This document shows, in pieces, positions 9,905 to 50,212 of a stretch of DNA of 64,000 nt. Both the position numbers and the translations under genes were made by a program. A model generated the notes under the pieces. The model made no database searches. It worked only from the letters and a program-made list of their open reading frames with translations, and was not told where the DNA came from. Every line of letters starts with the position of its first letter. Position 1 is the first letter of the stretch. The stretch comes from Candidatus Woesebacteria bacterium GW2011_GWA1_39_21. GTDB taxonomy: Bacteria; Patescibacteriota; Microgenomatia; UBA8517. The stretch lies in NCBI GenBank assembly GCA_000993685.1, contig LBWP01000004.1, positions 4,055-68,054 on the forward strand, read 5' to 3'.

Positions 9905-10064
9905 AAATAAACAACCCATACCTCTTGGACATGAGCTTTCTCGCCTAATAGGCTTAAAGAGTCCTTCGACTGTACTCAGGATGATTGACATGGCGAACCA
10001 TTTGTTCACTGCTTCGCTTCAGCACAGGGCTGACAGCCCTGAGTTTTCGCGAAGTTTGAATAAA
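9905..10064 (+). repeat. Intergenic modular repeat, copy A (about 160 bp).
   Basis: Shares the 5' module AAATAAACAACC…TTCTCGCC, the internal module GAACCATTTGTTCACTGCTTCGCTTCA, a hairpin (CAGGGCTG/CAGCCCTG) and the 3' module GAGTTTTCGCGAAGTTTGAATAAAG with copies at 14044-14188(-), 15492-15636, 29381-29498 and 50084-50212. Confidence 0.8.
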
Positions 10065-13997: not shown

Positions 13998-14043
13998 TAT
14001 AAGGTATGTTTACCATAAAAAATTCCTAATAACAACAAGAATT

Positions 14044-14188
14044 TTATTCAAACTTTGCCAAAACTGTGAACTTCGAGTTTTCGGATATCTCTGACTAGGA
14101 GAGAAGCGAATCAGTGAACAGACCCGCCTCGCCGGCTGGCAGGCTCTTCGCAGAAAACCGATGGTTAAGAAACCTCGGTTGTTTATTT
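14044..14188 (-). repeat. Intergenic modular repeat, copy E (minus orientation, about 145 bp).
   Basis: The reverse complement reads AAATAAACAACCGAGGTTTCTTAACCATCGGTTTTCTGCGAAGAGCCTGCCAGCCGGCGAGGCGGGTCTGTTCACTGATTCGCTTC…GTTTTGGCAAAGTTTGAATAAAAT, which is near-identical to copy C (50084-50212). The mltG stop codon lies inside its AATAAAC 5' end. Confidence 0.8.
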
Positions 14189-15491: not shown

Positions 15492-15636
15492 AAATAAACT
15501 ACCTAAGGGCTAAGAGTCCTCGGAATTCTCGCCCTTTGGTCTCAACAAGTCCTTCAGTTTTTACTTAAGATGGTGAACTAACCCGAACCATTTGATCACT
15601 CCTTCCTTTCATCCGTGGACTAAGAGTCCACGGTTT
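15492..15636 (+). repeat. Intergenic modular repeat, copy D (about 145 bp).
   Basis: AAATAAACTACCTAAGGGCTAAGAGTCCTCGGAATTCTCGCCC…GAACCATTTGATCACTCCTTCCTTTCATCCGTGGACTAAGAGTCCACGGTTTTGGCGAAG. It contains a perfect 9-bp hairpin CCGTGGACT/AGTCCACGG and overlaps the last codons and stop of ruvX. Confidence 0.8.
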
Positions 15637-16000
15637 TGGCGAAGATAATTGCCGCAGAGTAGGCATCTTCCATCTCTTTTCGTTTTTTCCTTTTGATTCC
15701 AGCGCCAATTGACAACTCCTGCGCATCCTGAGTTGACAATGATTCATCTTGAAAGACGATCTGGCAACTTAACTTCCTGCCTAACTTTACAACAAACCCC
15801 TTTGTCTCTTTGGCCATTTCCCCATCCGATAACCCAAAAACCACTGTTGCCACTGACTGTTCTTCTGCGGCTTGTTTCACTTTTTCCAATCCATCGACTT
15901 CGTCGTCATACCTGATAACCTTCCACGGTTCTGAAATCACACCGTCTGAAACAGCTAAACCTATTTTTTTTCTTCCATAATCAATCCCTAAAAATTTCAT
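15620..16000 (-). CDS. ruvX: Putative pre-16S rRNA nuclease / Holliday-junction-resolvase-like YqgF (RuvX).
   Basis: GIDYGRKKIGLAVSD at the N-terminus (RNase H-like fold, YqgF family). The C-terminal codons (…FAKTVDS*) are encoded within repeat copy D. Confidence 0.85.
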   Translation of the reverse strand: MKFLGIDYGRKKIGLAVSDGVISEPWKVIRYDDEVDGLEKVKQAAEEQSVATVVFGLSDGEMAKETKGFVVKLGRKLSCQIVFQDESLSTQDAQELSIGAGIKRKKRKEMEDAYSAAIIFAKTVDS

Positions 16001-16665: not shown

Positions 16666-18930
16666 TTACTTATCCGCGCTAACAGAAATTTCTATGTTTC
16701 CTGGCACTCTAGGAAGTGTTCCAAGTCTCCCCGGGAGGTTGATGTTTAAGAACTTGATGACAACTCTTTCATAGCCTGGGACATTATTTTTCAAATACTC
16801 CTCAGCTGTATTTGGGAATTTTCCAGTGATGTTTTTTCTGATCTTATCGATATCAACTTGAGGTAAGAGATTCGCGCTTACAATAAGCTTTAAGTTGTAA
16901 ACACTATCTTCCTTAGTTTGATAAGTGAAGTCTGATTCAATTTGATTATTTTTCAAACTGTATCCTGTCGGAACCCTTTGCGATAAGTATTTTAGTCCGA
17001 GTTTTTCAATATCGTTTTTATTGACAGTTACACCATCTGCCTTCAACTCCAAACTAAGCGATAAAGTGGTTCCTTCGTCGCCAACTTTCTTGTCAAATTC
17101 TTTATTGGTGAGAGAATAGGTGATTGAGTCAGCAATCAAGACCTGGCTGTCGGGTATTTTACCGCTTAATTTTTCCTTTAAATTGCTTTGTATTTCACTT
17201 TGTAAATCGTCAAACAGTTTCTTCTGATCGGCCTCAGAAACCGCATTGACCTCACGGCTTGTTCCACCCGAAAAGGCAGATTCGTTGGTCGCCTCCATAT
17301 CAGCATTGGAATAGTTGGCAACCGTAAAGGTTGAACCGGCCGCAAGATTGTATTGCGCACCAATTTCCTTAGCAGTTACCTTTGCTTTGGTAACACCTCG
17401 TGTCAAAACGCTCCCACTAGCAACGTTAATCTCTTCATCCAAAGAAAAATTCAGACTTCCCGGCCCTTTGATTAAAGTGTCTTTATCTAACTTGAGCGAA
17501 CTTCCTGAACGGTATATTGTTACTTCACCACTAGCCTTGTCTCCAACAACTTTCGTTCCAGTCGTTGAAACACTTTTGTCTTCCGACAATGATTCGTCAA
17601 CCACACCACCTGCAAGAAGCAGATCATCAAAATCTGATGAGCTTGCACTGCTATCAACCCTGATTTCAACATCCTCCTGAATATTTTTAGGTGAGACATA
17701 AATAGACACCTCCGCTTTCGGGAAAAACCACCAAAAAACAAACAGTCCTACTGTTACTAAAAATAAAATCAAAAATCCAACAATTAAAGGTTTCGGAGTT
17801 GGCAATCGCATTGTGACACTCGATTCCGAAATATTTTCGCTGTGGCGTTGAAATCTCTTGAAGAAAGAAAAAAGATTTGAAATCCTACCAAGTTTGTCCG
17901 TAAAAGTTTTTTTCTGGGGGGATGCAGGCATTTGTGCTTCTTCTTGTGGAGCATTTTTCTGCTCCACAAACTTACTAGCAATCGCAACTTCGTTGCCTAA
18001 GGCATCCTCCTTGTTTACAGTAAAACCAAAGTCTTCTGGAGAAATATCGCTGTCGGGTTCTGTCAAATTTGATGTTTCATGCCGAATAGTATCATTTGAC
18101 TGGGCATCAAGTTTGTCATCCGCAGCTACATTTTCCATTCCAGGTTCCACTGGCAAATCGGAAGAGGTGTCGATTTGCTCAACGTTCCCCATTTCGGCAC
18201 CACCCGCAAGGCAAACCGCATGGACTTTCTTGTCAGACGGAACAATTTCAATTTTTGGAGTGTGAAGAAATTTTATATCTTTATAATTTTCCCAATCAGC
18301 CTTAATCAACTCCTGCCTGATTTCATCTAATTCACCTTCTTTCGAATTGTAGAGTATAATTCTCGAAGGATATGCCTCGTCCGATTTAAAGCGGGACAGC
18401 CCTTCAGAAACATCTTCGACAACCGAAACGCTTCGCGCAATTTGCGACACACCAACCAATTTCCCCAATCTGAAAATTGACAATTCTAAATTATCTTGAA
18501 AAACTCCCAAAAAGACGGCGTTTACCAGACCACCTTCCTCCGCTTTAAAATAATTACAAAGCGCCTCGGACATCACCACAAAACCAACGGGTTCAAGGGA
18601 TAATTCGGAACAGACTCTTTTTATTTTTGACAGATATTCCGCTTTAATCTCTCCATCTTCCACCCAAGAAGAGACTACGCCAAAAACAGTTTTAGAAGGG
18701 GGATCGATTTCTTCAGGAAAATTCTGTACAACTGAAGAACAACTTGCATCGCATGCTGAAACAAGCTCATCGTCAAGATGCCATGAAGATGAAGGACTAA
18801 CAGAGATTACCTGGACTTTGTTTTCAGTCAATTTCCAAATACCTGCCGAAACCCATTCAGGCTCAATTGCCAAAGACCAAAAATACCTTTCTTCTTCCTT
18901 CCTTTTGGGCAGTACGCTTTTTAAATCCAT
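16666..18930 (-). CDS. Large membrane protein (754 aa): a cytoplasmic N-terminal domain of about 380 aa (possibly an actin-like PilM/FtsA-type fold), a single TM, then a roughly 350-aa extracytoplasmic Ser/Thr-rich domain.
   Basis: Central TM LIVGFLILFLVTVGLFVFWWFF. N-terminal segments (LAIEPEWVSAGIWKLTENKVQVISVSP; …KVHAVCLAGGAEMG) loosely resemble PilM/FtsA phosphate motifs. The 4-bp overlap with the sortase gene suggests co-transcription. Confidence 0.6.
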   Translation of the reverse strand: MDLKSVLPKRKEEERYFWSLAIEPEWVSAGIWKLTENKVQVISVSPSSSWHLDDELVSACDASCSSVVQNFPEEIDPPSKTVFGVVSSWVEDGEIKAEYLSKIKRVCSELSLEPVGFVVMSEALCNYFKAEEGGLVNAVFLGVFQDNLELSIFRLGKLVGVSQIARSVSVVEDVSEGLSRFKSDEAYPSRIILYNSKEGELDEIRQELIKADWENYKDIKFLHTPKIEIVPSDKKVHAVCLAGGAEMGNVEQIDTSSDLPVEPGMENVAADDKLDAQSNDTIRHETSNLTEPDSDISPEDFGFTVNKEDALGNEVAIASKFVEQKNAPQEEAQMPASPQKKTFTDKLGRISNLFSFFKRFQRHSENISESSVTMRLPTPKPLIVGFLILFLVTVGLFVFWWFFPKAEVSIYVSPKNIQEDVEIRVDSSASSSDFDDLLLAGGVVDESLSEDKSVSTTGTKVVGDKASGEVTIYRSGSSLKLDKDTLIKGPGSLNFSLDEEINVASGSVLTRGVTKAKVTAKEIGAQYNLAAGSTFTVANYSNADMEATNESAFSGGTSREVNAVSEADQKKLFDDLQSEIQSNLKEKLSGKIPDSQVLIADSITYSLTNKEFDKKVGDEGTTLSLSLELKADGVTVNKNDIEKLGLKYLSQRVPTGYSLKNNQIESDFTYQTKEDSVYNLKLIVSANLLPQVDIDKIRKNITGKFPNTAEEYLKNNVPGYERVVIKFLNINLPGRLGTLPRVPGNIEISVSADK

Positions 18931-24763: not shown

Positions 24764-26923
24764 TCAACTATTTAATATCGTCCGAATTCCCTGAATATTA
24801 CTTTTTAACACCGCGAGTTGACCTTGAATCGCACTATAATCTTCAATATTGCCTTTACTATTCATAGATTCAAAAAGTACATTAATGATAGATTTATAAG
24901 TACCAAAAGCGTGATCTTTTTCTGGTGTTATTTTATTTTGTTCTCGTAAATTTTCGATTTCGCCGCTTACTGAATCGTACTCCTGCCTAAGTGTTTCTGC
25001 TTGACGTAAAAGTTCCTCTTCCACCTTTTCTCTTTTGATCTGATCAGTAGTTACAGTCTCCTCCTTATTACCTTGCTCTGAAACCTGTCTTGCTTTTGAG
25101 GGTAGGTTGACAATAGTAGCTTCGGAAACAGAGCCATTCTCTTTCGGATTTTTATCTTCTCTGACTCCCACTACTTCCGGATTTTGTACTTCATCTTTTA
25201 ATACTGCCTCTGGATTTTTTACTGCTGGTTCTTGCACTTTTCCAATCAGATTTAGACGTTTCTCTAAATCCTCTTGAAACACTCTAAATAAAGGATTGTC
25301 TTTGTTTGTCTCTCTGATTTCCTCAATTTTTGCTTTCAAATTTTCAGCCGACACCACCTCGATATCTGCCACTCGTGCTTCAACTTCCGCTTTCATATCT
25401 CTTCCCGTTATTTCAGCGGCCACACCAGTTACCCCAACTATCGCTTTCGCTCCTAATTCTTTCCTCTTTGTATACAAAATCACCTTACTTTCCTGCCAAT
25501 GGATATTGGTCTCATGAATCGCTTCAAACAGGACTGATTCTGCACTAAAAATTGCGCTTTTAGTTTCTGCGTTTATCCGAAGTGTTTTATCTCTTACACT
25601 GCTGGCAAAGTCGGAGATATTTTCTTTTGCCGATCTGGTATGATCCCTAGCCTCCGAAAAAAAAGCCTCATCAATATCTTTTAACACTTCCACAGAATAA
25701 TCCTTTCCTGACTTTAGACCGTAATCAATTTTATCAACAGAGTCGGTAACACCCTTTTTTAATTTTTCTCCCAACAAAGACCCGTGAGAGTTCAACCATT
25801 CTTTTCCAACATTAAATAGATTACCGAGTGCCCTACCCCTATCCTCACCTTTGACAAAGCTATCTAATACTTCATCCCAAGTTTTTCCCCACCCTGATTT
25901 TGCCTCGTCCAATCTTTGTTCGGCCAGAGAAACATTAGCTTGAGTAATCAAAGCTTTTCTCTCTAATTGAAGTTCGTTGATCTGCGAAACCATCTGACAA
26001 ACATCCCACGGTTCAGAATTTAAGTTCTTTTCCAATTTCTGTCTTAAATTGGAAATTCTTTGATCAACCTCCGCGATGGGTTTAAAGGTATCATTTTTCC
26101 TTTTCTCACCCATTCTACCCATCAAATCTTTTTTATCTTGATCATCAGAAAATCCATCTTTGTATCTATCAGCACTTGCATTGATCAAACCTGCTTGTTC
26201 GTCTTCACTAAGCTGGTTAAATTTCCTGAGATTAACTGACTCTGTAACATTTTCTTTAAATTGAATATCTTCTCTTAATTGCTCACCTAAATCTTCTCTA
26301 CCAATTGACGCGGAGCCTCTCTCAACAACATGAAGCAGTTTTTTAGATAGTCCCTCAACCTTATACGAAGCATTTCTGATTTCGGCTCGCGAAAGTTCCT
26401 CTCGATTCGTCTTTTTACCTAAATCCTCTTTCGCACCATGAAGCTCAACCAAAGATCCCACGTAACTATCGATAAATTTATCGGCGAGTTTTTCGGCAAG
26501 TCCTGAATAATCCTGAGTAATTTTTTCTCTTAACAAATGTTGTCTTTCTTCAGAAGAATTTCCGGATGAAATTTCTTTCGGTTCAATTTCATATCTTTTC
26601 ATCCCCAATCGCTTATATAAAACATCCATTGATACAACAGCTTTGTTTGCCTCTGAAGGATTGTTTATATTTTCAACAGAATTTCCTGCATTTATATATA
26701 AAATCGAGATGTCACCAACATTGGGGTCTTTCAGAGAACCCAGGTATGCATCGTACAATTTCTTCCCCACTGCATCTTCTCCGCTTTTTATTTTGTCTAC
26801 CGCTTCTTTTTTTAAATTATTAAAACGCTCCTCCTCTTGTCTTCTTTCAGCTCCATTTTCCCTTTTCTGTCCTGATACATTTAAACCCGGCTGTACTTGT
26901 GAAGTTTCTGATAAAGGTTCCAT
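24764..26923 (-). CDS. Large hypothetical coiled-coil protein (719 aa, highly charged Glu/Lys/Asp-rich, no TM).
   Basis: Long ORF with a strongly repetitive charged composition (…EELLRQAETLRQEYDSVSGEIENLREQNK…). No recognisable catalytic motif. Confidence 0.65.
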   Translation of the reverse strand: MEPLSETSQVQPGLNVSGQKRENGAERRQEEERFNNLKKEAVDKIKSGEDAVGKKLYDAYLGSLKDPNVGDISILYINAGNSVENINNPSEANKAVVSMDVLYKRLGMKRYEIEPKEISSGNSSEERQHLLREKITQDYSGLAEKLADKFIDSYVGSLVELHGAKEDLGKKTNREELSRAEIRNASYKVEGLSKKLLHVVERGSASIGREDLGEQLREDIQFKENVTESVNLRKFNQLSEDEQAGLINASADRYKDGFSDDQDKKDLMGRMGEKRKNDTFKPIAEVDQRISNLRQKLEKNLNSEPWDVCQMVSQINELQLERKALITQANVSLAEQRLDEAKSGWGKTWDEVLDSFVKGEDRGRALGNLFNVGKEWLNSHGSLLGEKLKKGVTDSVDKIDYGLKSGKDYSVEVLKDIDEAFFSEARDHTRSAKENISDFASSVRDKTLRINAETKSAIFSAESVLFEAIHETNIHWQESKVILYTKRKELGAKAIVGVTGVAAEITGRDMKAEVEARVADIEVVSAENLKAKIEEIRETNKDNPLFRVFQEDLEKRLNLIGKVQEPAVKNPEAVLKDEVQNPEVVGVREDKNPKENGSVSEATIVNLPSKARQVSEQGNKEETVTTDQIKREKVEEELLRQAETLRQEYDSVSGEIENLREQNKITPEKDHAFGTYKSIINVLFESMNSKGNIEDYSAIQGQLAVLKSNIQGIRTILNS

Positions 26924-27026: not shown

Positions 27027-28673
27027 TTAAACCTCGACGATTAGGGGAAGAATCATCGGGCGACGCCCCGTTTTTTGAAAGAAGAATTTCTCCAAATAAT
27101 CTTTGGCAACTTTTTGCGCTACTTTTTTATCAACTTTGCCGTTTTTTTCAATCTGACGACTTAATCTTCTTTTCGCATTCTCTAAAAGCGGCTGTTCTAT
27201 CTTCTCAAAAACAAAGCCCCTACTGATAATTTCGGGTTCTCCTTTTAATTTATGATCGCTGCCAATTTTAATTAAAACTGCAGCAAAACCCTCGCTGCCC
27301 AAAATTGTACGGTCGCCAAGTACTACTTTACCAATATCGCCAATTCCCAGTCCATGAACCAGCACTTCTTTTGTGCCAATTCTATCTCCCTGCCTTGCTG
27401 AGCCATTCTGAAAATTTACATTGTCTCCCGGTTTTAAGATAAAAACCTTACTATCATCCCCACTGGTTCTGGCAACTAATTTCTTATAAGCATGCATAAA
27501 ACGAATCGACCCGCCAATCGGAATAAAATACTTCGGTTTCACTAAGTTAAACATGGCAACAATATCTTCCTGACTACCATGTCCTGACACATACAAATCT
27601 TCGTTCAAATCGTAATAATGTACGTCTACTCCTTTATCAATCAGTTTATCAATCACATAATCCTCGCTTTCTTTTGAATAAGGAGGAGCCGGATCTGCCG
27701 AAAAAATCAACATGTCACCCTGGGCAACTTCTAACTTCTCATGTTTACCTTCTGCAATTCTGTAAAGCGAACTTCCTACTTGCCCATAACAACCTGAAAC
27801 AATGTAGGTAATTTTATTTCTTTGGTAGTCATAAGATTCGTCAATACTTATTACAAGATTCTTATCATACTGAATATATCCCAGTAAATGCGCTGACTCG
27901 ACCTTCTTCTGAATCGACCTGCCGACAAAAACTACTTTTCTCCCCAGGCGCGAGGAAACATTTACCATTTGCTGAAATCTCCCAATGTTTGACGAAATCG
28001 CGGTCATTAGAAGCGCTTCTTTAGCCTCCTTAGCAACGTTATAGATGTTGTCTTCAAGATAAAGCTCTCCTTTAGTATACCCAGGTTTATTTGCCCCCAA
28101 ACAGTCCGACGCCAAACACAATACCTCGCGATCTGCAAGCTGTTTAATCTTAGCCGCATCAATTCCCCTTCCGCCAACCGGATTTTCATCCATTTTATGC
28201 TCAGGAACATGGAAAAATCTCCCTTCAGGTGTGTCGATTGCAAAACCGCACGAATCGGGGACAGAATGTGTAATCCTAAAAGGATGAAAAACAAAAGCTC
28301 CAACTTCAAACTGACTACTGTCGGGATCAAAAGTATTAATCTTTACACCTTCTACACCATATTCATTGAATTTATCTTTCAGAAATTCAGCCACAAGCGG
28401 TGCCGCCCAAACAGGAACGGAAACACTTCTTAGCAAAAAGGGCAAAGCTCCAATATGATCCTCATGCCCCTGGGAAACAACAACCCCTACAAGTTTCTCC
28501 TTATTTTTAACGATGTAAGAAAAGTCGGGTATCACCAGATCAACACCCGGCATTTCAAGATCAGGAAAACCAACCCCGCAGTCGACAACAACCATCTTTC
28601 CCTCCGATTCATAAACATAGAGGTTTTCCGTGACGCTCACTGTTCCAGACAAAGCAATAAACTTTAATGACAT
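27027..28673 (-). CDS. rnj: Ribonuclease J (metallo-beta-lactamase / beta-CASP family).
   Basis: HxHxDH motif VVSQGHEDHIGALP, a beta-CASP region and an RNase J C-terminal domain; 548 aa. Confidence 0.85.
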   Translation of the reverse strand: MSLKFIALSGTVSVTENLYVYESEGKMVVVDCGVGFPDLEMPGVDLVIPDFSYIVKNKEKLVGVVVSQGHEDHIGALPFLLRSVSVPVWAAPLVAEFLKDKFNEYGVEGVKINTFDPDSSQFEVGAFVFHPFRITHSVPDSCGFAIDTPEGRFFHVPEHKMDENPVGGRGIDAAKIKQLADREVLCLASDCLGANKPGYTKGELYLEDNIYNVAKEAKEALLMTAISSNIGRFQQMVNVSSRLGRKVVFVGRSIQKKVESAHLLGYIQYDKNLVISIDESYDYQRNKITYIVSGCYGQVGSSLYRIAEGKHEKLEVAQGDMLIFSADPAPPYSKESEDYVIDKLIDKGVDVHYYDLNEDLYVSGHGSQEDIVAMFNLVKPKYFIPIGGSIRFMHAYKKLVARTSGDDSKVFILKPGDNVNFQNGSARQGDRIGTKEVLVHGLGIGDIGKVVLGDRTILGSEGFAAVLIKIGSDHKLKGEPEIISRGFVFEKIEQPLLENAKRRLSRQIEKNGKVDKKVAQKVAKDYLEKFFFQKTGRRPMILPLIVEV

Positions 28674-28701: not shown

Positions 28702-29343
28702 TCAAATTAGATGCATTTGTTCAATCTCATCCTTAACTTTAGTTTTGTCGGTTTCAACTTCGATATTACTACTATCGGCCTTTTCTAATATAGCAGGTAA
28801 TTTTTCAAAATCCATCGTAAACTTCAATTTAACTTCGCCACTGCGCAGTGCCGCTGCAGGATGATACATTGGCACGACAATCTTACTTTTACCTTTCCAG
28901 TCAACCACTCTTTCCTTTCCGTGCACACTGGAAATAAAAACACCCGGAATGAACTTCGCCATCGAAAATCTCCCTAAAGTTACAATTACTTTCGGATCGA
29001 TAATATCAATCATTTCGTCTAAATATCTTTGGAAAGCTTTTATTTCAAAATCGGTTGGGTCTCTATTTTCCGGAGGACGGAAATGAACAACATTGGTGAT
29101 AAAAATGTCTTTTCTCTGAAGACCAATCCTAGTGAGAAGTTGGTTGAGAAACGCTCCAGCATTCCCAACAAAAGGAATCCCCTTGACATCTTCCCAGTAT
29201 CCAGGGCCTTCACCGATAAAAAGTAGCTCCGAATCTGGATTTCCATCACCAAAGACAAGCTGCGTTGCCCCCTCACGTAAAGGAAGGGTATCATCCTTTT
29301 CCATTTTTGCTTTCAGTTCATCTAGAAGTTTTTGTTTATCCAT
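28702..29343 (-). CDS. Uracil-DNA glycosylase, family 4 type.
   Basis: GEGPGYWEDVKGIPFVGNAGAFLNQLL matches the family-4 UDG motif GE(A/G)PG…E…G.PFVG.AG. Start chosen at MDKQKLL, because the track start at 29382 would run into repeat copy B. Confidence 0.8.
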   Translation of the reverse strand: MDKQKLLDELKAKMEKDDTLPLREGATQLVFGDGNPDSELLFIGEGPGYWEDVKGIPFVGNAGAFLNQLLTRIGLQRKDIFITNVVHFRPPENRDPTDFEIKAFQRYLDEMIDIIDPKVIVTLGRFSMAKFIPGVFISSVHGKERVVDWKGKSKIVVPMYHPAAALRSGEVKLKFTMDFEKLPAILEKADSSNIEVETDKTKVKDEIEQMHLI

Positions 29344-29380
29344 AAGGACTCGAATTTGTAACTTAATACTCCAACTACTC

Positions 29381-29498
29381 AATAAACTACCGAGGGCTAA
29401 AAGCCCTTGGTATTCTCGCCCCTCAGGCTCAACAAGTTTATTCGCTGCTTCGCTTCATCCGTGGACTGAGACCACGGTTTTCGCGAAGTTTGAATAGA
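29381..29498 (+). repeat. Intergenic modular repeat, copy B (about 118 bp; short form lacking the central module).
   Basis: AATAAACTACCGAGGGCTAAAAGCCCTTGGTATTCTCGCCCCTCAGGCTCAACAAGT…GCTGCTTCGCTTCATCCGTGGACTGAGACCACGGTTTTCGCGAAGTTTGAATAGA. It starts immediately after the stop codon of the Lon-like ORF (29501). Confidence 0.8.
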
Positions 29499-29500
29499 CA

Positions 29501-30556
29501 TCACCTGGGCAAGTATTCTTTAATATTTTCGGGGCTTAGATCGAATTTCTGGTTTTTTCCCTCAACCATCAGTCTCGCAATCTTTCGTACAATACCTTTA
29601 ATCGTACGTTCCAAGGTTCTAGTACCAGCATCAAAACCCAATGGTCTGACGATTTGTGGCCAAACATCCTCGGAAATACTAATTCCACCTTCCGGTATTC
29701 CTGATTCATTCAAAATTTTAGGCAACATGTAATCTCGGCCAATTGTAATTTTCTCCCGGTCAGAATACGAAGGCATGGAAATTGGTTCCAACCTGTCAAG
29801 TACAGCAGTTGCAATATGATGGGTATTATTCGCTGTAGCTACAAATAAGACTTCAGAAAGGTCAAAAGGGAAATCAACGTAATGATCAGTGAACGCGTGG
29901 TTTTGCTCGGGATCCAGAAGCTCGACTAACACACCCATAATTGACGCTCTACCAGCTTCAGTGACCCTGTCGACTTCGTCTAGGAGTACGACCGGATTTT
30001 TAGCTTTCGCTGCTCTAAGAGCTTTTATGATTTTACCAGGTTCGGCTTCAGCTTGAACTCTCGACTGTCCTCTCAAATCAAAGGGGCTTTCCATACCACC
30101 AAACGGTATCCTGACAAATTTACGGTTCAGAGCTTCGGCAATTGAGATGGCGATCGTTGTTTTTCCAGTACCAACCAAACCAACAAAACAAAGGGCGGGT
30201 GCTCTCATCATTTCTTTTGCTTCGCCTTTTTCTTGCTTAAGTTTCATCACAGAAATGTATTCTAAAATCCGATCTTTAATTTCCCCAAGACCGAAATGAT
30301 TCTTGTCTAAGATACTCTTCGCATGCTCAAGATCAAGGTTATCTTGAGTCCTTTCATACCACGGCAGTGCAGTTATCCACTCTAGATACTTTGAAATACG
30401 GTCAAGTTCCGGCAAAAAAGACGACGAGGCTACAAGATTTTTCAACTGTTCCAGCCTTACAAGAATTCTCTCTTTGAGACCCTCTGGAATTTGAGCGTTT
30501 TCTAGTTTTTGCTTTAAGAGTTTCAGTTGTTCTTCAGAAGATTCATACTGAGCCAT
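29501..30556 (-). CDS. Lon-family AAA+ ATPase core only: it has the helical linker and AAA+ module but lacks both the N-terminal LON substrate domain and the C-terminal Ser-Lys protease domain.
   Basis: The protein aligns along its whole length with the central region of Lon. Matches include ILDKNHFGLGEIKDRILEYISV (Lon ILDTDHYGLERVKDRILEYLAV), Walker A GLVGTGKTT, Walker B VVLLDEVD, sensor-1 FVATANN, VELLDPEQNHAFTDHYVDFPFDLSEV and LDRLEPISMPSYSDREK. It ends exactly at the AAA+/protease boundary, and repeat copy B follows immediately. Confidence 0.8.
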   Translation of the reverse strand: MAQYESSEEQLKLLKQKLENAQIPEGLKERILVRLEQLKNLVASSSFLPELDRISKYLEWITALPWYERTQDNLDLEHAKSILDKNHFGLGEIKDRILEYISVMKLKQEKGEAKEMMRAPALCFVGLVGTGKTTIAISIAEALNRKFVRIPFGGMESPFDLRGQSRVQAEAEPGKIIKALRAAKAKNPVVLLDEVDRVTEAGRASIMGVLVELLDPEQNHAFTDHYVDFPFDLSEVLFVATANNTHHIATAVLDRLEPISMPSYSDREKITIGRDYMLPKILNESGIPEGGISISEDVWPQIVRPLGFDAGTRTLERTIKGIVRKIARLMVEGKNQKFDLSPENIKEYLPR

Positions 30557-30622
30557 ACTGATTTATAATACACGAAATAGTCATATATTAAAACCTTGTT
30601 GGAGGCTAACCGGAAGAACAAA

Positions 30623-32893
30623 TTACCTTTCGTACTTGCCTTTAACTTGATCTAACAGTCTGCTAGTTGGGAAATGGGGCCCACCACCGCCTCCGGACGA
30701 TCTAGAAAATCTGTTTCCACCTCTTCTATCACCACGATCGAAAGGTTTTTTATATCCTCCAGAATAGTTTCCACCTCTTGACCCCCCCGTCCTTCCACCG
30801 CCAGTATTTTTAGGCTTGTCGTGATCAAGAAGCATTGATAGATTGATTCTTCCCAGTTCATCAACTTCTTTGACTCTGACTTTGACATCCTGTCCTATTT
30901 TTACAACATCCGAAGGGTTTCCAACAAAATCATCACTCATATCAGAAACGTGGACCATACCTTCTTTACCAGGTAGGATCTCAATAAAAGCACCAAACGG
31001 CTGGATTCGCCTTACGACTCCATCGTAAATTTCCCCAGCAACCAGCTCACGGAACATGCTTTCAATTTCGCTGACTGCCTTTTCGACATCCTCAGAATTT
31101 ATAGCCGATATGAAAATGTTACCGTCATCATCAACGTCGACTTGCGCTCCGGTTCGAGAAATAATTCCTTTAATTATCTTTCCTCCAGGACCAATAAGCT
31201 CTCCAATTTTTGATTGCTCAATCTTAATGATTTTGATCTTCGGGGCGTATTTCGAAACACTCGATCTCGGAGCCGAAATGGCTTTTTTCATAACCTCCAA
31301 AATTGTCATTCTCGCTTCGCGTGCTTGCTTAAAAGCAGTTTCTAAAATATTTACAGTCAAGCTTAAGGTTTTAACATCAAGTTGAAGGGCGGTAATGCCT
31401 TTTTCTGTTCCCGCAACTTTAAAGTCCATGTCGCCATTACCATCCTCAATACCGACAATGTCCGTCAAAATTGCAAATTCTTTCTCTGACTCGACAATAA
31501 CCCCCATTGCAATTCCTGCAACTGGAGCTTTAATTGGAACCCCCGCATCCATTAAAGAAAGGGTCGATCCGCAAGTTGATGCCATAGACGTTGATCCATT
31601 TGATGATAGAACTTCTGTTACAACTCTTATCGCATAAGGAAACTTATCCTCTGATGGAATAACTGGGAGAAGTGCGCGTTCCGCCAAAGCTCCGTGGCCA
31701 ATTTCTCTGCGTGAGGGGCTTCCAATTCTTCCCGTCTCCCCAGTAGAATATGGTGGCATGGAGTAATGGTGCATGTAACGTTTTGTTTCTTCACCTTCGG
31801 CAGTCTCAATTGTCTGCCCGAGTGAAGGTTCACCTAAAGTGGCAATTGAAAGAGCTTGCGTTTGTCCACGTTGAAAAATCGCGGAACCGTGCGTTCTAGG
31901 AAGAACCGATACTTCCGCTGAAAGAGCACGAAGTTCGTTATGTTTTCTACCATCTGCCCTTTTACCAGAAAGAATCAATTTTCTTACTTCTGCTTTAAAG
32001 AGATTTTCAAAAACAGCTGCTGCAGTTTCCTTTTCGGTAGCATCTTCAAAGTTGTCTACAATAGCGTTTTTAACTTCATTAAAAATTTCGTATCCCGCCT
32101 CTTTCGTAGCCATTTTTGATACCAGATCTTTAATCTGCCCCTCTGCAAGTTTTTTAACCTTCTTGACTAATCCTTCATCAATCTTTTCTTTTTCAAAAAC
32201 TTCCTTCTTGGTTCCTACCTTTCCAACAAATTTATTTATTTGCATGACAATTTGTTTACACTCACCGTGTGCTAGATTTAGTGCCTCTACCATCTCGCCT
32301 TCGGGAATTTCTTTACCACCGGCTTCAACCATAACAACTGCCTTTTCAGTCGCCGAGACAACTAAATCCAGATCTGATTTTTCCAAATCAGACATAATAG
32401 GGTCAACAACAAGCTTTCCGTCAACCCTTCCAATCTTCACCACTCCAACCGGACCCATCCACGGAATTGATGAAATTGCTAAAACAGATGATGCAGCAAT
32501 TGCTGCAGTGATATCAACAGAATTTTCTAAATCGACGGATAGTAACGTAATAACCAGCTGAACTTCGTGACCAGTATATTCCTTGGGAAAAAGAGGTCGA
32601 ATTGATCGGTCTATCAAACGACTTGTGAGAATCTCATCATCAGATGGTCTTCCCTCTCTTTTGACCCAACGGCTTCCCTTTATTCTTCCACCAGCATAGA
32701 GCCTTTCTTGATAGTCAACGAAGAGGGGAAAATAATCCAGATGTTGTTTCATTGGAGCGGAAACGACAGTTGCCAAAACAACCGTTTCACCGCAAGAAGC
32801 CATAACGGCTGCCGTTGCTTGCTCTGCAATGTTTCCTGTGGTCAGGGTGAACTTTCTCCCAGATACTTCAAAACTATGTTCAATTTTTTTCAT
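30623..32893 (-). CDS. pnp: Polyribonucleotide nucleotidyltransferase (PNPase) with a Gly/Arg-rich C-terminal tail.
   Basis: Two RNase PH domains, a KH domain (KIGELIGPGGKII), an S1 domain and a C-terminal GGGRTGGSRGG… tail. Downstream of rpsO. Confidence 0.95.
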   Translation of the reverse strand: MKKIEHSFEVSGRKFTLTTGNIAEQATAAVMASCGETVVLATVVSAPMKQHLDYFPLFVDYQERLYAGGRIKGSRWVKREGRPSDDEILTSRLIDRSIRPLFPKEYTGHEVQLVITLLSVDLENSVDITAAIAASSVLAISSIPWMGPVGVVKIGRVDGKLVVDPIMSDLEKSDLDLVVSATEKAVVMVEAGGKEIPEGEMVEALNLAHGECKQIVMQINKFVGKVGTKKEVFEKEKIDEGLVKKVKKLAEGQIKDLVSKMATKEAGYEIFNEVKNAIVDNFEDATEKETAAAVFENLFKAEVRKLILSGKRADGRKHNELRALSAEVSVLPRTHGSAIFQRGQTQALSIATLGEPSLGQTIETAEGEETKRYMHHYSMPPYSTGETGRIGSPSRREIGHGALAERALLPVIPSEDKFPYAIRVVTEVLSSNGSTSMASTCGSTLSLMDAGVPIKAPVAGIAMGVIVESEKEFAILTDIVGIEDGNGDMDFKVAGTEKGITALQLDVKTLSLTVNILETAFKQAREARMTILEVMKKAISAPRSSVSKYAPKIKIIKIEQSKIGELIGPGGKIIKGIISRTGAQVDVDDDGNIFISAINSEDVEKAVSEIESMFRELVAGEIYDGVVRRIQPFGAFIEILPGKEGMVHVSDMSDDFVGNPSDVVKIGQDVKVRVKEVDELGRINLSMLLDHDKPKNTGGGRTGGSRGGNYSGGYKKPFDRGDRRGGNRFSRSSGGGGGPHFPTSRLLDQVKGKYER

Positions 32894-37361: not shown

Positions 37362-38252
37362 TCAAAGGCCTTCACGCTTCAACCCGTTTACCAAATCTCT
37401 TTGTTCGCGTGTGAGGTGGTCTGGAGTTTGAATCAGAAGACGGACATATTCGTCACCCTTCGCACGTGATTGGATTGAGGCAATACCTTTGCCCCGCAGC
37501 CTGACAACCGTACCAGATTGTGTTCCTGGGCGGATCTTAATTTTGACGGACCCGTCGAGAGTTGGAACCTCAATTGTGCCCCCCAGAATGGCCGTTGAGA
37601 AGGAAATCTCCATTTTGATGTAAATATCGGAAGCTTCTCTTTCAAAAAGCTCATGCGGTCTTATGTTGATTGAGAGTATAAAATCATCAAACCTGATTCT
37701 TTGTCCTTCATCGACTCCTGCCGGAATCTTGATTTTCCGTCTTTTTCCTTCGACTGTCACTTCCTTTTCAACTCCGTTTACAGCTTCCATAAAATCAATC
37801 GCGATACTGTATCTTTGAATTTGTTTACGAGTTTGTCTAAAAGGGTTGCCACCACCAAAAAAGCTTTCAAAAATATCAAACGGGTCGCTAAAGTCGTAAC
37901 CGGCGAATGGCGATCCGTCCCCACCGGAGGTTGAATAGGTATATGTAAAAGGACCCCACTGACCACCCTGTCCAGCAAATGGACTCCCACCACCAGCTCT
38001 TCCAAAACCACCACCGGGTTCAAACGCCTGATGTCCGAAACGGTCATATGCCGACTTTTTTTGCGGATCAGAAAGAACTTGATAAGCTTCATTTATTTCC
38101 TTAAAACGTTTCTCGGCAGCTTCTTTATCGTCCTTGTGTCGATCAGGATGCCATTCAAGCGCTTGCTTACGATAAGCTCTTTTTAGCTCATCGGCCGAAG
38201 CGCTTTTAGTAACTCCCAAAATGTCGTAGTAGTCAGATTTTCCGTTTGCCAT
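37362..38252 (-). CDS. dnaJ: DnaJ-class co-chaperone without the Cys-rich zinc-finger domain (CbpA/type II-like).
   Basis: J domain with HPD (YYDILGV…HPDRH), a Gly/Phe-rich region and C-terminal substrate-binding domains, but no CxxCxGxG repeats. 296 aa. Confidence 0.85.
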   Translation of the reverse strand: MANGKSDYYDILGVTKSASADELKRAYRKQALEWHPDRHKDDKEAAEKRFKEINEAYQVLSDPQKKSAYDRFGHQAFEPGGGFGRAGGGSPFAGQGGQWGPFTYTYSTSGGDGSPFAGYDFSDPFDIFESFFGGGNPFRQTRKQIQRYSIAIDFMEAVNGVEKEVTVEGKRRKIKIPAGVDEGQRIRFDDFILSINIRPHELFEREASDIYIKMEISFSTAILGGTIEVPTLDGSVKIKIRPGTQSGTVVRLRGKGIASIQSRAKGDEYVRLLIQTPDHLTREQRDLVNGLKREGL

Positions 38253-38296: not shown

Positions 38297-38323
38297 TTAG
38301 CACTCATCGGTTAATAATGCTAA
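38297..38323 (-). promoter_or_regulatory. CIRCE-like HrcA operator upstream of dnaJ.
   Basis: In the dnaJ orientation: TTAGCATTA-TTAACCGAT-GAGTGCTAA, against the consensus TTAGCACTC-N9-GAGTGCTAA (right arm 9/9, left arm 7/9, exact 9-nt spacer). It sits 45-70 bp upstream of the dnaJ start codon. Confidence 0.6.
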
Positions 38324-39984: not shown

Positions 39985-41919
39985 TCATTCTACAACTTCC
40001 CCCTCTTCCACTTTATCTCCTTTTCCTTTTGGAGATTTTTTCTCTTCCCCATCACCTTCCGTTTTCTTCTCGTCCGTCTCCGCTTCGTTCTGACTTTTGA
40101 CTTTTGAGTTTTGAGTTTGATTTCCGTACATTGCTTGACCAATCTGACTTAAAGTGTCAGATAAATCCTTCGACGCAGCTTCGACTTCTTCCTTACTTGC
40201 ATCTTCTTTGGCCAAGACGTCTTTAACTGCTTTGATTTTCTCTTCAACTTTCGTTTTGACATCCGCCGGAGCCTTATCTCCCGCATCTTTAAGAGCTTTC
40301 TCGGCTGCGTTAACCATTGAGTCAGCTTGGTTTCTCGCAGTAATTTTCTCTGCCTTTTTTCGATCTTCCTCTTTGTGATGCTCAGCCTCCTCTTGCATCC
40401 TTTTAACTTCGTCATCGGAAAGCCCCACAGCTCCGGAGATAGTGATATTTTGTGTCTTACCGGTTGCCTTATCTTTGGCAGTAACCTTCAAAATGCCGCT
40501 AGCATCAAGGTCAAAGACAACCTCAATTTGCGGGACACCGCGTGGGGAAGGTGGTATTCCATCGAGGACAAAGCGGCCGAGATTTTTATTATCTGCGCTC
40601 ATTGGTCGCTCACCCTGGGTAACATTTATTTCAACTTGGGTTTGATTGTCAGCGGCCGTAGAAAAGACTTCTGTTTTTGATGTCGGAATTGTAGTGTTTC
40701 TCGGAATCATCGGAGTTGCAACTCCACCTAATGTTTCTATTGCCAAAGTTAGAGGTGTAACATCCAAAAGCAAAATATCTTTGACCTCACCGCCCAAGAC
40801 TCCAGCTTGAATTGCAGCACCGACGGCAACAACCTCATCGGGATTTACCGACTGGTTTGGCGTCTTTCCAAACAAATTTTTGACTACTTCAACAACCTTA
40901 GGCATTCTCGTCATTCCACCAACCATAATCACTTCGTCAATATCATGCGCATCAAGCTTTGAATCCTTAAGACACTCCTCAACAGGCTTGATCGTTTTTT
41001 GAATCAGATCGTCAACCAAACTCTCGAGTTTGCTACGTGTTAACTTCATTGTCAGATGGACCGGCTGACCGTCCTTCTGAGTAATATAGGGTTGGTTGAT
41101 CTCGACCTCCATACTGGCGGAAAGTTCAATTTTTGCTTTTTCCGCCGCATCTCTAACTCTCTGAAGTGCTTGTTTATCTGCCCGCAAATCAATTGCATTA
41201 TCTTTCTTAAATTCGTCACAGATGTAGTCTACAAGCTGTTCGTCAAAATCATCTCCACCTAAATGAGTATCCCCATTGGTCGCCTTGACTTCAAAAACAC
41301 CATCACCAAGTTCGAGAATTGAAATATCGAAGGTTCCGCCACCTAAATCATAAACAGCAATCTTCTCTGATTTTTTCTTATCAAGGCCATATGCTAAAGC
41401 CGCGGCTGTTGGTTCGTTGATAATTCGCTCAACTTTAAAGCCTGCTATTTCACCCGCCTGTTTTGTCGCCTGGCGCTGCGAATCATCAAAATATGCGGGG
41501 ACGGTGATTACTGCCTGATCCACACTCTCGCCAAGATAGCTTTCGGCATCTTTTTTCAGCTTCATTAAAATTCTTGCGGAAATCTCCTGAGGTGTATATG
41601 ACTTTCCTTCAACTTCAACGTCTGCCCCGCCGTCTTTCCCCGAAACAATCGTGTAAGGCACCATTTTTTTCGTTCTTTCAACTTCCTTATCGTCAACTCT
41701 TCGTCCCATCAACCTCTTTATCGAGTAAACTGTATTTTTAGGATTTAAGATAACTTGTCTTTTTGCAACATCGCCAACTAGATTTTTGACAGGTTCAACC
41801 ACGGACGGGGTGATGTTTCTCCCAGTATCAACCGCCGGTATGACTTTCGGGCGTCCACCCTCTATCACCGCTACACACGAATTTGTTGTTCCTAAATCTA
41901 TTCCAACTATTTTTCCCAT
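39985..41919 (-). CDS. dnaK: Chaperone DnaK (Hsp70).
   Basis: [23 protein letters not shown], and an acidic C-terminal tail; 644 aa. Confidence 0.97.
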
Positions 41920-46216: not shown

Positions 46217-46839
46217 GCACGACATTTCGGGACAGGTACTTGAGAAGCAAATATATTGTTCAGAAAACCATCCATGATTATAGCGAAAAGCCCGCGCTTA
46301 GGGCGTACTTGGAGATTTTCTTAACTCTAATTACCGTCTCGCTTTTCGGAATTTTTGCAATCAGGCCGACGTTGATTACAATCGGAAGGCTACTCCAAGA
46401 AATCAAGGCCAAAGAAAGTACTCTGACCGTCATGAATGATAAAGTTTCCGACTTATTGGTCGCGAAAGATCTTTACAATCGGGAGGAAGACAAAATCAAT
46501 CTGATTGATGAAGCGGTTCCTAAATCACCAAAACCAGATAATCTGGCATTACAAATTGAAGAGCTAACCAAAAAAGATGGTGTTTTGATAAACAATTTAA
46601 CAATTGAGGACACACTTGTTCTGGGTCAAGGATCAGATCCCAACGACAATGGTTTGAACTTCAATCTAGGTGTTACGGGTAACTACTTCGATTTAATAAA
46701 ATTCGCAGAGCACCTTGAGACAATGCGTAGACCAATCAATTTTGACAACCTAACCATCACTTCAAATCAAAGTCCGGACGGTAACTCTTTATTTATGACG
46801 TTTGAAAACTTGTCTACACCATATTCATTACAACAATGA
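46213..46839 (+). CDS. pilO: Type IV pilus assembly protein PilO-like (bitopic).
   Basis: Single TM (LEIFLTLITVSLFGIFAI) followed by a periplasmic domain; operon position after pilN. Confidence 0.5.
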   Translation: MSTTFRDRYLRSKYIVQKTIHDYSEKPALRAYLEIFLTLITVSLFGIFAIRPTLITIGRLLQEIKAKESTLTVMNDKVSDLLVAKDLYNREEDKINLIDEAVPKSPKPDNLALQIEELTKKDGVLINNLTIEDTLVLGQGSDPNDNGLNFNLGVTGNYFDLIKFAEHLETMRRPINFDNLTITSNQSPDGNSLFMTFENLSTPYSLQQ

Positions 46840-48438: not shown

Positions 48439-50088
48439 ATGGGAACTAAAAAGTGGACTCTGTTGGTTTTAGTTTTGTCATTAATTATCGGATCGTATCT
48501 TCGCTTTTACAAACTCGATTGGGGAGAGGGTTACTATTTTCATCCCGACGAGTACCACATCGTCGGTGCTGTACACCATCTAATTAGCAATGGTCTTTTT
48601 TCAAACCCACAGCTTTTTTCGTACGGATCACTCACTGTATACCTAATCTACTTCGCATACCAAATTCTCTCCCATTTTCTAGCCACTCCAAATATTTTTA
48701 TTATCGGAAGGAGCCTCTCCGCACTTTTTTCAACATTGACACTAATCATCATCTTCGCAATCTCTAAAAAAAATTTTCCAAAAAACAAATATCTACCGGT
48801 TTTTGTAGTTCTTGTATCTGCATTTGTTCCCGGAATGATTCAACAAGCCCACTATCTAACTCCAGAAACGTTTATCACTTTTTGGATTACCCTTTCAACC
48901 TACTTTTTTATTGTCTATTTTGAAAAACAAAAATTAATCAATCTGATCTTGTCCGCGTTGTCATTGGGGCTTGCGGGAGGAACAAAAATTTCAGCTTTTG
49001 CGGTGTTGCCGTTTTTTCTGACTACAATCTTTTTTTACAAATTAAAAAAGGAAATTATTTTTTCCCGGTTGCAACGCGTACTACTTTTCCTCACAACCGC
49101 TTTTGTACTTTTTTTCAGCGTTTTTCCATACAGTATCCTTGACTACACGGACTTTAGAAGTACAACAAGATACGAAAGTTCACTCGCTACGGGGGCAACA
49201 AAAGTGTTTTATACCAGAGCATTCGAAGGCTCGATCCCTTTTCTTTTTCAGATAACTAAAATCTACCCCTACACGGTCGGAGTAGTGTGCTTAGGCTTTT
49301 CTATTTTTGGAGCGATAATCACCGCAATAAAGGTAATTAAAAACACTGGCGCAAAAAGAATTAAATACCTAATTCTCGCTGGCGTTTTTTTTTCTTATTT
49401 TCTTTTCAATGGTCTCCTCTTCACGAAATGGACGCGCTTTATTCATCCGACAATCCCATTTGTGATAATTTTCGCGTTTTTATTAATCGACTACGTCACA
49501 GAAAAAATTAAAAACCCTGTCAGAAAAATTGTATCTGCAGCTCTTGTCTTTGTATTAGTTGGGGCAACAATTATTTCAGGTTCAATGTATTTTACAATCT
49601 ACCAGCGCAGCGACGTTAGGATTCAGGCAACCAACTGGGCAGCAACACACTTGGAGAAAAATAGTTACATCCTCACAGAAACTGGTAACACATTGGAGGT
49701 TCCCCTCAAGGGACAATACAATATTATCCCCTTCGATTTTTACAATGTGGACACCAGGCCACAATTATATGAAAAGCTATTAGAAAGTATTTCTAAAAGC
49801 GACTACTTCATCATTCAAAGCAGAAGAATTTACCTTAACCACAAAAATAAAAATGAATACCCTGTGGCCGTTAACTTCTACAAAAGTCTTTTTTCCGGAC
49901 AGCTTGGTTTTACGGAAATACAAAGTTTCGAATCATTTCCGCAATTAACTGTTGGTAAATTTAAATATACAATTAATGATGAAAAGTCCGAAGAAACATG
50001 GACTGTATTCGATCATCCGGTTTTAAAAATCTTTAAAAAAACTAAGGGATTTTCAATCAACCATTATGACCAAATCCTTAGACAATAA
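48439..50088 (+). CDS. GT-C superfamily polytopic membrane glycosyltransferase (PMT/ArnT-like, family 39/83-like).
   Basis: 549 aa, 10 or more TM segments. The first extracytoplasmic loop reads YLRFYKLDWGEGYYFHPDEYH (the DE motif of GT-C enzymes). Paralogous to the next gene. Its stop codon lies inside repeat copy C. Confidence 0.55.
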   Translation: MGTKKWTLLVLVLSLIIGSYLRFYKLDWGEGYYFHPDEYHIVGAVHHLISNGLFSNPQLFSYGSLTVYLIYFAYQILSHFLATPNIFIIGRSLSALFSTLTLIIIFAISKKNFPKNKYLPVFVVLVSAFVPGMIQQAHYLTPETFITFWITLSTYFFIVYFEKQKLINLILSALSLGLAGGTKISAFAVLPFFLTTIFFYKLKKEIIFSRLQRVLLFLTTAFVLFFSVFPYSILDYTDFRSTTRYESSLATGATKVFYTRAFEGSIPFLFQITKIYPYTVGVVCLGFSIFGAIITAIKVIKNTGAKRIKYLILAGVFFSYFLFNGLLFTKWTRFIHPTIPFVIIFAFLLIDYVTEKIKNPVRKIVSAALVFVLVGATIISGSMYFTIYQRSDVRIQATNWAATHLEKNSYILTETGNTLEVPLKGQYNIIPFDFYNVDTRPQLYEKLLESISKSDYFIIQSRRIYLNHKNKNEYPVAVNFYKSLFSGQLGFTEIQSFESFPQLTVGKFKYTINDEKSEETWTVFDHPVLKIFKKTKGFSINHYDQILRQ

Positions 50089-50212
50089 ACAACCGAGGGT
50101 TAAGAACCCTCGGTTTTCTGCAAAGAGCCTGCCAGCCGGCAAGGTAGGTTTGTTCACCGCTTCGCTTCAGAACATGGCCAAGAGCACTGAGTTTTCGCAA
50201 AGTTTGAATAAA
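50084..50212 (+). repeat. Intergenic modular repeat, copy C (about 129 bp).
   Basis: AATAAACAACCGAGGGTTAAGAACCCTCGGTTTTCTGC (a perfect 9-bp hairpin plus T-run, terminator-like), then AAAGAGCCTGCCAGCCGGCAAGGTAGGTTTGTTCACCGCTTCGCTTCAGAACATGGCCAAGAGCACTGAGTTTTCGCAAAGTTTGAATAAA. It contains the likely ATG start of the downstream paralog. Confidence 0.8.

Follow-up and report, generated by a model that had tools for sequence, protein, structure and literature searches.

Can a Lon homolog that carries neither the LON N-domain nor the Ser-Lys protease domain be a working protein, or is it the wreck of a full-length lon gene? This question is raised by a gene on contig LBWP01000004.1 of Candidatus Woesebacteria bacterium GW2011_GWA1_39_21, lying within the 64-kb stretch of DNA (GC content 39.5%) that was analysed here as a whole and is referred to below as the window; the genes of the window are those of a bacterium of the Candidate Phyla Radiation (CPR; Patescibacteria). 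The gene encodes an AAA+ protein of 351 residues, and an identical (100%) database protein is named 'Lon protease [Candidatus Woesebacteria bacterium GW2011_GWA1_39_21]'. An initial annotation, made from the DNA letters alone, had described the product as Lon reduced to its AAA+ core, with a repeat element beginning next to its stop codon, and had offered two readings: a decaying paralog truncated by repeat-associated rearrangement, or a stand-alone Lon-type unfoldase or regulator. We are left with very little doubt that the protein belongs to a functional, conserved and non-proteolytic family of stand-alone ATPases. The gene and the parts of its product, with residues of E. coli Lon and Meiothermus taiwanensis LonA (MtaLonA) for reference, are:

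29501..30556, minus strand: gene for a protease-less LonA-type AAA+ ATPase of 351 residues (ATG start; TGA stop at 29501-29503).
30371..30556, minus strand: N-terminal three-helix bundle, residues 1-62, the equivalent of helices alpha8-alpha10 of E. coli Lon, with which the HI(CC) domain of LonA ends.
29777..30286, minus strand: nucleotide-binding (large alpha/beta) domain, residues 91-260 (Pfam AAA match at 122-258; Foldseek comparison with LonA structures).
30155..30181, minus strand: Walker A motif, GLVGTGKTT, in which Lys132 is equivalent to E. coli K362.
30035..30073, minus strand: pore-loop 1, RGQSRVQAEAEPG, with Gln168 at the position of the canonical invariant Tyr (E. coli Y398, MtaLonA Y397), beside an acidic E-A-E-P-G that is specific to the family.
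29969..29992, minus strand: Walker B motif, VVLLDEVD, in which D193/E194 are equivalent to E. coli D423/E424.
29930..29968, minus strand: pore-loop 2 region, RVTEAGRASIMGV, with Gly201 at the position of MtaLonA W431 and the canonical aromatic residue and 'GDP' motif replaced.
29786..29836, minus strand: sensor 1, TANN (N243, equivalent to E. coli N473), and the trans arginine finger, DRLE (R255, equivalent to E. coli R484).
29504..29776, minus strand: alpha-helical lid (H) domain, residues 261-351 (Pfam Lon_lid match at 284-336), which carries sensor 2.

The part of Lon that is present can be delimited precisely. When E. coli Lon was compared with the window by tblastn, its residues 241-579 aligned to 30556-29510, and a Pfam scan of the 351 residues returned AAA (PF00004) and Lon_lid (PF22667) only, with neither Lon_C (PF05362) nor the LON N-domain (PF02190) among the matches; the protein is therefore the central segment of Lon, helical linker plus AAA+ module, as the initial annotation had it. 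The placement of its two ends, after the LON N-domain and at the protease-domain junction, also agrees with the tblastn alignment and with the TIGR00763 'lon' model, which covers profile positions 251-571 of 795 only. The C-terminus (...NIKEYLPR) falls within the Lon motif that joins the AAA+ module to the protease domain. Both curated models for full-length Lon score below their cut-offs (TIGR00763, 342.8 bits against 608.05; NF008053, 236.7 against 891). By the definition given in PMC9569914, Lon proteases comprise both an ATPase domain and a protease domain. Because the protease domain is absent and the curated cut-offs are failed, the 351-residue protein should not be named a Lon protease, and having no such domain it would be unable to degrade anything by itself.

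Within the 64-kb window, tblastn with the N-domain of E. coli Lon (residues 1-250) produced no match, and the protease domain (residues 576-784) left no remnant in any frame, including downstream of the gene, where the initial annotation had considered that traces of a recent pseudogene or frameshift might lie. A single weak match at 46378-46551 was rejected as a Lon remnant, since it sits inside a PilO gene. Read-through of the TGA stop, or an alternative genetic code, was likewise rejected: TGA ends 19 of the 43 long open reading frames (ORFs) in the window, and reading through it here would give only 20 extra codons.

Structure prediction points to the same relationship. The AlphaFold2 model (mean predicted local distance difference test score 74.9) consists of three N-terminal helices (residues 2-19, 25-39 and 47-62), a Rossmann-like nucleotide-binding domain and a helical lid, and it matches LonA structures with Foldseek template modelling (TM) scores of 0.7-0.77. 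The three-helix bundle, for which the HI(CC) domain definition of PMC6722904 was used, aligns with E. coli Lon residues ~241-300. The closest solved structures are LonA proteases (E = 4.6e-76 to B. subtilis Lon); the protein spans residues 8-338 of the B. subtilis Lon construct and covers the whole of 6N2I, the E. coli Lon AAA+ fragment (query 6-349 matching chain 6-339).

Whether relatives share the truncated form, a comparison that the initial annotation had proposed, could be answered at the level of both proteins and DNA. In a word-indexed protein search there were, among the matches listed, at least 120 homologs with 66-87% identity and lengths of 311-360 residues, nearly all of them 341-360; two shorter ones, of 311 and 341 residues, are probably partial. 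A DNA pattern for the family motif (E-P-G, twelve codons, N-P-x-x-L-L-D-E), applied to one genome per species, returned at least 120 loci. All 120 of those listed were true homologs, with 39-72% identity across nearly the whole query, and all 120 encode the short form, so intact core-only relatives do exist. The complete ORFs (n = 97) are 340-472 residues long, and every one ends 0-8 residues past the position of the query C-terminus; the differences in length are N-terminal, some members having low-complexity extensions. The flanks of 120 related loci, searched by tblastn with E. coli Lon 1-250 and 576-784, held no Lon_C-like or LON-N-like sequence.

The gene is under strong purifying selection: against five orthologs, the proportion of nonsynonymous differences was 0.15-0.24 and that of synonymous differences 0.76-0.89, the latter being saturated. 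Identity is ~70% across Woesebacteria and 40-60% across classes. An exhaustive search of 50%-identity cluster representatives separated the protease-less short proteins from canonical Lons, and in a neighbour-joining tree of 218 Lon AAA+ modules the protease-less forms made up one clade of 54 tips, apart from all protease-bearing Lons. In bacteria that have so few genes, conservation of this strength points to an important role.

By those record titles that are informative, the family occurs within the CPR in Woese-, Shapiro-, Levy-, Roizman-, Pace-, Ames-, Davies- and Collierbacteria, and further in the 'Microgenomates group', Dojkabacteria, WWE3 and one Nomurabacteria. Titles reading 'uncultured Gammaproteobacteria', 'Pseudomonadales' and 'Saccharibacteria' occur in one third-party series of metagenome-assembled genomes (MAGs; L011, L013, L016, L036 and ~45 other CAY*/CAZ* records). 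These records carry low-GC loci of the CPR type, in the order rpsO-pnp-Lon core-rnj, their largest contigs measure 0.5-0.65 Mb, and their organism titles are probably unreliable. The MAG SRP329715_co1_384 (L038, L078) has two family members, one in a WWE3-like neighbourhood and one in a groES-linked, Roizmanbacteria-like neighbourhood, so that either the bin is mixed or its genome has two paralogs. One clade member, the 548-residue P0173 from Candidatus Dojkabacteria, is extended at its C-terminus by 196 residues, for which Pfam gives no match and in which no similarity to the Lon protease domain is detectable.

The ATPase motifs were compared in an alignment of 133 family members and 71 canonical Lons. 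Six residues, namely K132 of Walker A, D193/E194 of Walker B, N243 of sensor 1, the trans arginine finger R255 and R313 of sensor 2 (DAGTRTLER, in the lid; equivalent to E. coli R542), are each at least 90% conserved in the family and in canonical Lon alike. The earlier description had listed Walker A and B, sensor 1 and the LLDPEQN...DHY...DLS block, and all of these are indeed retained in the 351-residue protein. The Walker A signature itself has its own form, GL.GtGKTt in the family versus GPPGvGKTS in canonical Lon. All of the features by which an active AAA+ ATPase of the classic clade is recognized in sequence are present.

The pore loops, which go unmentioned in the initial annotation, are another matter. 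In MtaLonA, Tyr397 and Trp431 touch the translocating substrate, and both are needed for degradation (PMC8503904). Pore-loop 1 of canonical Lon reads D-E-A-E-I-R-G-H-R-R-T-Y-[VI]-G-[AS]-[ML]-P-G, and its Tyr is present in 71 of 71 canonical sequences. In the protease-less family the loop reads L-R-G-x-S-[RK]-x-x-x-[ED]-[AS]-E-P-G; the Tyr position is occupied by H, F, S, Q, Y, L, E, N, K or R and is aromatic in 33 of 133 members. The Gly that follows the canonical Tyr has become Glu or Asp in 112 of the 133, and position 402, canonically the Leu or Met before Pro, has become Glu in 131. The aromatic residue of pore-loop 2 is replaced by Ala, Gly or Ser, and the 'GDP' motif is also swapped for small residues. 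The equivalents of Tyr397 and Trp431, the substrate contacts of MtaLonA, are not conserved. The family has therefore kept the ATP engine of Lon and remodelled the part by which polypeptide is gripped: the paddle position is free of constraint, and next to it stands a conserved acidic motif.

Comparison with known systems places the family close to LonA and distinct from it. LonA proteases (E. coli Lon, B. subtilis LonA, Meiothermus taiwanensis LonA and human LONP1) have the same three-helix bundle, AAA+ domain and lid, with 34-43% identity over the common region, and share Walker A and B, sensor 1, the arginine finger, sensor 2 and the LDPEQN...DHY...DLS block. Unlike LonA, the family lacks the LON N-domain, the long coiled-coil helix and the S16 Ser-Lys domain, and it has pore loops with an acidic E-x-E-P-G in which the Tyr or aromatic residue is not conserved, together with a Walker A of GLxGTGKTT in place of GPPGVGKTS. 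The domain boundaries are essentially those of E. coli Lon 235-584 (PDB 6N2I; Foldseek TM-score 0.76, normalised to target length), a stable fragment that limited proteolysis yields and that packs in its crystals as an open ring of six subunits (PMC6722904). That fragment is a laboratory product with canonical pore loops, whereas the window protein is naturally encoded and has its loops rebuilt.

LonC (e.g. Meiothermus taiwanensis LonC) resembles the family in being a Lon relative that has given up one of two activities, but it is the mirror image: in LonC the protease is kept and the AAA-like domain has no ATPase activity, whereas in the family it is the ATPase residues that are kept and the protease that is gone. 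A LonC-type identity was rejected, because the Walker motifs are intact and the protease is absent. HslU and ClpX are single-ring AAA+ ATPases that are encoded without a protease domain and partner separate peptidases (HslV and ClpP). Their pore loops are aromatic and their known peptidase partners are usually encoded adjacently, whereas the family has non-canonical loops and no partner nearby.

The reading that we favour, and regard as probable, is that the protein is an intact, LonA-derived, non-proteolytic ring ATPase that spends ATP on holding, remodelling or regulating particular clients. According to this model, a LonA ancestor would have lost its N-terminal substrate-binding domain and its C-terminal Ser-Lys protease domain to yield a stand-alone AAA+ family, in which the three-helix bundle, the nucleotide-binding domain and the lid remain. 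The protein would form a ring and hydrolyse ATP between subunits; since the trans arginine finger is conserved and the equivalent E. coli fragment packs as a hexamer, it presumably works as an oligomer with inter-subunit active sites. With acidic axial loops (E-x-E-P-G) and an unconstrained paddle (Gln here), it would probably not thread polypeptides in the manner of Lon. A general threading unfoldase is unlikely because the paddle position is unconstrained and the channel acidic; the more likely role would be that of a chaperone or remodeller driven by ATP, or of a regulator that depends on nucleotide, with particular proteins or complexes as clients. The stand-alone unfoldase or regulator first proposed has in this way been upheld as a conserved stand-alone ATPase, while the word 'unfoldase' has become doubtful, the pore-loop Tyr and aromatic residue not being conserved.

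Several points weigh against the favoured reading. Phe or Tyr is kept at the paddle position in a quarter of the family, and some threading activity may persist in those parts of it. Confidence of the AlphaFold2 model is low exactly at the pore loops, and the neighbour-joining tree carries no support values. The gene neighbourhood yields no consistent functional partner, and the search for a peptidase partner or a canonical Lon covered the window and the neighbourhoods of the gene in relatives, so that either may be encoded elsewhere in the genome.

A bolder form of the favoured reading is offered only tentatively. Here the protease-less protein would be the sole Lon homolog in Microgenomates-type CPR, Dojkabacteria and WWE3, and Lon would have been converted into a new, non-degrading AAA+ machine with conserved acidic E-x-E-P-G loops along its channel, where Lon has aromatic paddles, and with specific, perhaps basic, clients.

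No Pfam or NCBIfam model is specific for the protease-less family, the current NCBI name for such proteins being 'AAA family ATPase', and no description of it turned up in the literature library that was searched for protease-less Lon and for Lon in CPR. The family is apparently an undescribed case, clean, conserved and derived from LonA. Many CPR proteins to which databases give the name 'Lon protease' or 'ATP-dependent Lon protease' have no protease domain, and reconstructions of proteolysis in minimal genomes that count them are therefore wrong. The family also represents a natural split of the Lon ATPase from its protease and could serve to ask what the Lon motor does alone, a matter so far approached only through engineered or proteolytic fragments.

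Among the rival explanations, the one that survives best, itself unlikely, is that the protein serves as the ATPase subunit of a two-component protease, docking on an S16 domain ('split Lon') or on another peptidase encoded elsewhere. The intact ATP-hydrolysis residues would suit such a subunit, separate ATPase and peptidase subunits have precedent in the same AAA+ clade, and the aromatic pore-loop residue is kept by a quarter of the family. However, none of the 105 loci whose neighbours could be analysed has a conserved peptidase neighbour, and the flanks are free of Lon_C-like sequence as described above. Moreover, the window protein and most of the family are without the pore-loop Tyr and the pore-loop-2 aromatic that are needed in LonA, and no docking motif resembling the IGF loop of ClpX was evident, no formal test having been aimed at one.

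The surroundings of the ATPase gene in the window are:

30557..30622, minus strand: spacer of 66 nt between the pnp stop and the gene start, with no N-domain coding capacity.
30623..32893, minus strand: pnp (polynucleotide phosphorylase, PNPase), conserved upstream neighbour.
28702-29382, minus strand: udg (family-4-type uracil-DNA glycosylase), conserved downstream neighbour.
27027-28673, minus strand: rnj (RNase J), conserved downstream neighbour.

The distance of 66 bp to pnp is as originally reported, and this spacer together with the lack of any remnant within the window bears out the statement that the missing domains are not encoded adjacently. From the gene stop to udg there are 118 nt to the TTG of the longest udg ORF and 157 nt to its first ATG. 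Syntenic relatives (71-77% identity) have the order nusA-infB-x-rpsO-pnp-[gene]-udg-rnj-(x)-ftsK, with a gap between gene and udg of just 90-221 nt. Clustering of the neighbours at 105 loci put pnp, rnj and udg in one large group and groES-groEL in another, with unrelated genes elsewhere; in the Roizmanbacteria-like group the gene is divergent from groES-groEL, Dojkabacteria have other neighbours, and some lineages have the gene beside pilM or a type-IV-secretion-like ATPase.

The protein might on these grounds be a nucleotide-dependent partner of the flanking RNA-decay enzymes PNPase and RNase J, for example one that remodels a degradosome-like assembly or its RNA-protein substrates, an explanation that we consider improbable. 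The order rpsO-pnp-[gene]-(udg)-rnj-ftsK is kept in Woesebacteria relatives, and across several CPR lineages PNPase lies at most two genes upstream in 25 of 62 loci and RNase J at most three genes downstream in 33 of 58. However, the block may merely be inherited synteny, the other lineages place the gene by groES-groEL, pilM, the secretion-like ATPase or unrelated genes, and an acidic pore would seem ill suited to binding RNA.

Similarly low odds attach to the proposal that a canonical full-length Lon has its gene elsewhere in the genome and that the protein, as a paralog, modulates this protease in the manner of a 'pseudo-protease' subunit, by co-assembling with it or titrating it. The Lon AAA+ interfaces and the arginine finger are kept, and tandem multi-AAA+ Lons in other phyla show that extra modules can work with a protease ring. 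Against this, no canonical Lon was found in the CPR sequences examined, which were neighbourhoods of the family gene only, and the nearest canonical Lons come from Clostridiales and Anaerolineales, not from CPR, at ~43% identity.

The tandem proteins are Lon homologs of ~900-1700 residues (P0121-P0138, P0153, P0158 and others) in which two or three Lon-type AAA+ modules precede one Lon_C. One is named Candidatus Dependentiae and others lie on contigs of more than 7 Mb; some of the extra modules have degenerate pore loops, e.g. RPDAAPG.

The remaining explanation, a pseudogene, concerns the repeat that adjoins the gene, of which the window has five copies:

29381..29499, plus strand: intergenic repeat copy of ~120 nt with two hairpins, filling the spacer to udg, its conserved end 1-2 nt from the stop codon.
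50084-50213, plus strand: long copy.
14043-14187, minus strand: long copy.
10001-10064, plus strand: partial copy.
15493-15645, plus strand: partial copy.

The position of the first copy confirms that the repeat starts ~2 bp past the stop codon, as had been pointed out. All five copies lie between genes, and their orientation with respect to the adjacent genes varies. The repeat is ~105-165 nt long; it has invariant blocks, AGTTTGTTCACTGCTTCGCTTCA and TTTTCGCGAAGTTTGAATAAA, and between them two hairpins, both with a T-run behind them. An alignment of 48 copies showed compensatory changes in 11 of 22 predicted pairs. A metagenome scan with the 19-nt right arm gave 96 loci, with the element in 70 and nearly full length in 58, and at none of these loci was it beside a Lon-core gene. 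A hidden Markov model built from the repeat copies found none in 128 related loci, orthologous junctions included. The repeat family is not in Rfam, and Rfam and tRNA scans of the window returned nothing. The repeat looks like a dispersed terminator-like element, or one resembling repetitive extragenic palindromic (REP) sequences or miniature inverted-repeat transposable elements (MITEs); it may be a terminator-bearing element of the REP/MITE kind or a small RNA of no described family.

The idea that the gene is an assembly artefact or a decaying pseudogene, left when a rearrangement with the adjacent repeat severed a full-length lon at the protease junction, has in its favour the 1-2 nt between repeat and stop codon and has practically no chance of being right, given the more than 200 relatives that share the ORF length and the C-terminus, the strong purifying selection, the lack of protease remnants, the absence of the repeat from the orthologous junction of relatives and the mere 118 nt that separate the stop from the TTG opening the longest udg ORF. 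The decaying paralog envisaged by the initial annotation is refuted already by the conservation data, and the repeat is ruled out as the cause of truncation, there being no copy in the 128 related loci. Because the protein has the same C-terminal end in genomes that lack the element, the contact between repeat and stop codon is a positional coincidence and not part of the gene's history.

Two further ideas about the genomic setting of the ATPase gene were set aside. An anti-phage defence ATPase (BrxL or others) was rejected, as PADLOC gave only generic AAA matches (E ~1e-5); the context is one of housekeeping genes, nusA-infB-rpsO-pnp...rnj-ftsK, and not a defence island. Heat-shock co-regulation was rejected, as neither the window gene nor the family genes divergent from groES have a CIRCE (controlling inverted repeat of chaperone expression) upstream. 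The window does contain, at 38297-38323, a CIRCE-like inverted repeat of the form TTAGCACTC-N9-AATGCTAA, ~45 nt upstream of the ORF at 37362-38252 (minus strand) and near dnaK (39985-41919, minus strand); this site suggests that the genome has an HrcA-type heat-shock regulon. The groES-linked loci are L060, L012, L028, L043, L047, L074, L078, L090 and L107, and in the representative L060 the GroES encoded divergently from the Lon-core gene has a Cys-rich insertion (…GSDCCGDKCCDDEKGKC…).

Two other ORFs of the window were noted. Between rnj and ftsK lies a 719-residue ORF rich in charged residues (24764-26923, minus strand) with no Pfam match; in the relative L004 its position is taken by a 614-residue protein, also without a Pfam match. 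A 754-residue ORF (16666-18930, minus strand) has a weak Baseplate_J-like match and adjoins a sortase gene and alaS, and a similar ORF adjoins alaS in the relatives L002 and L004.

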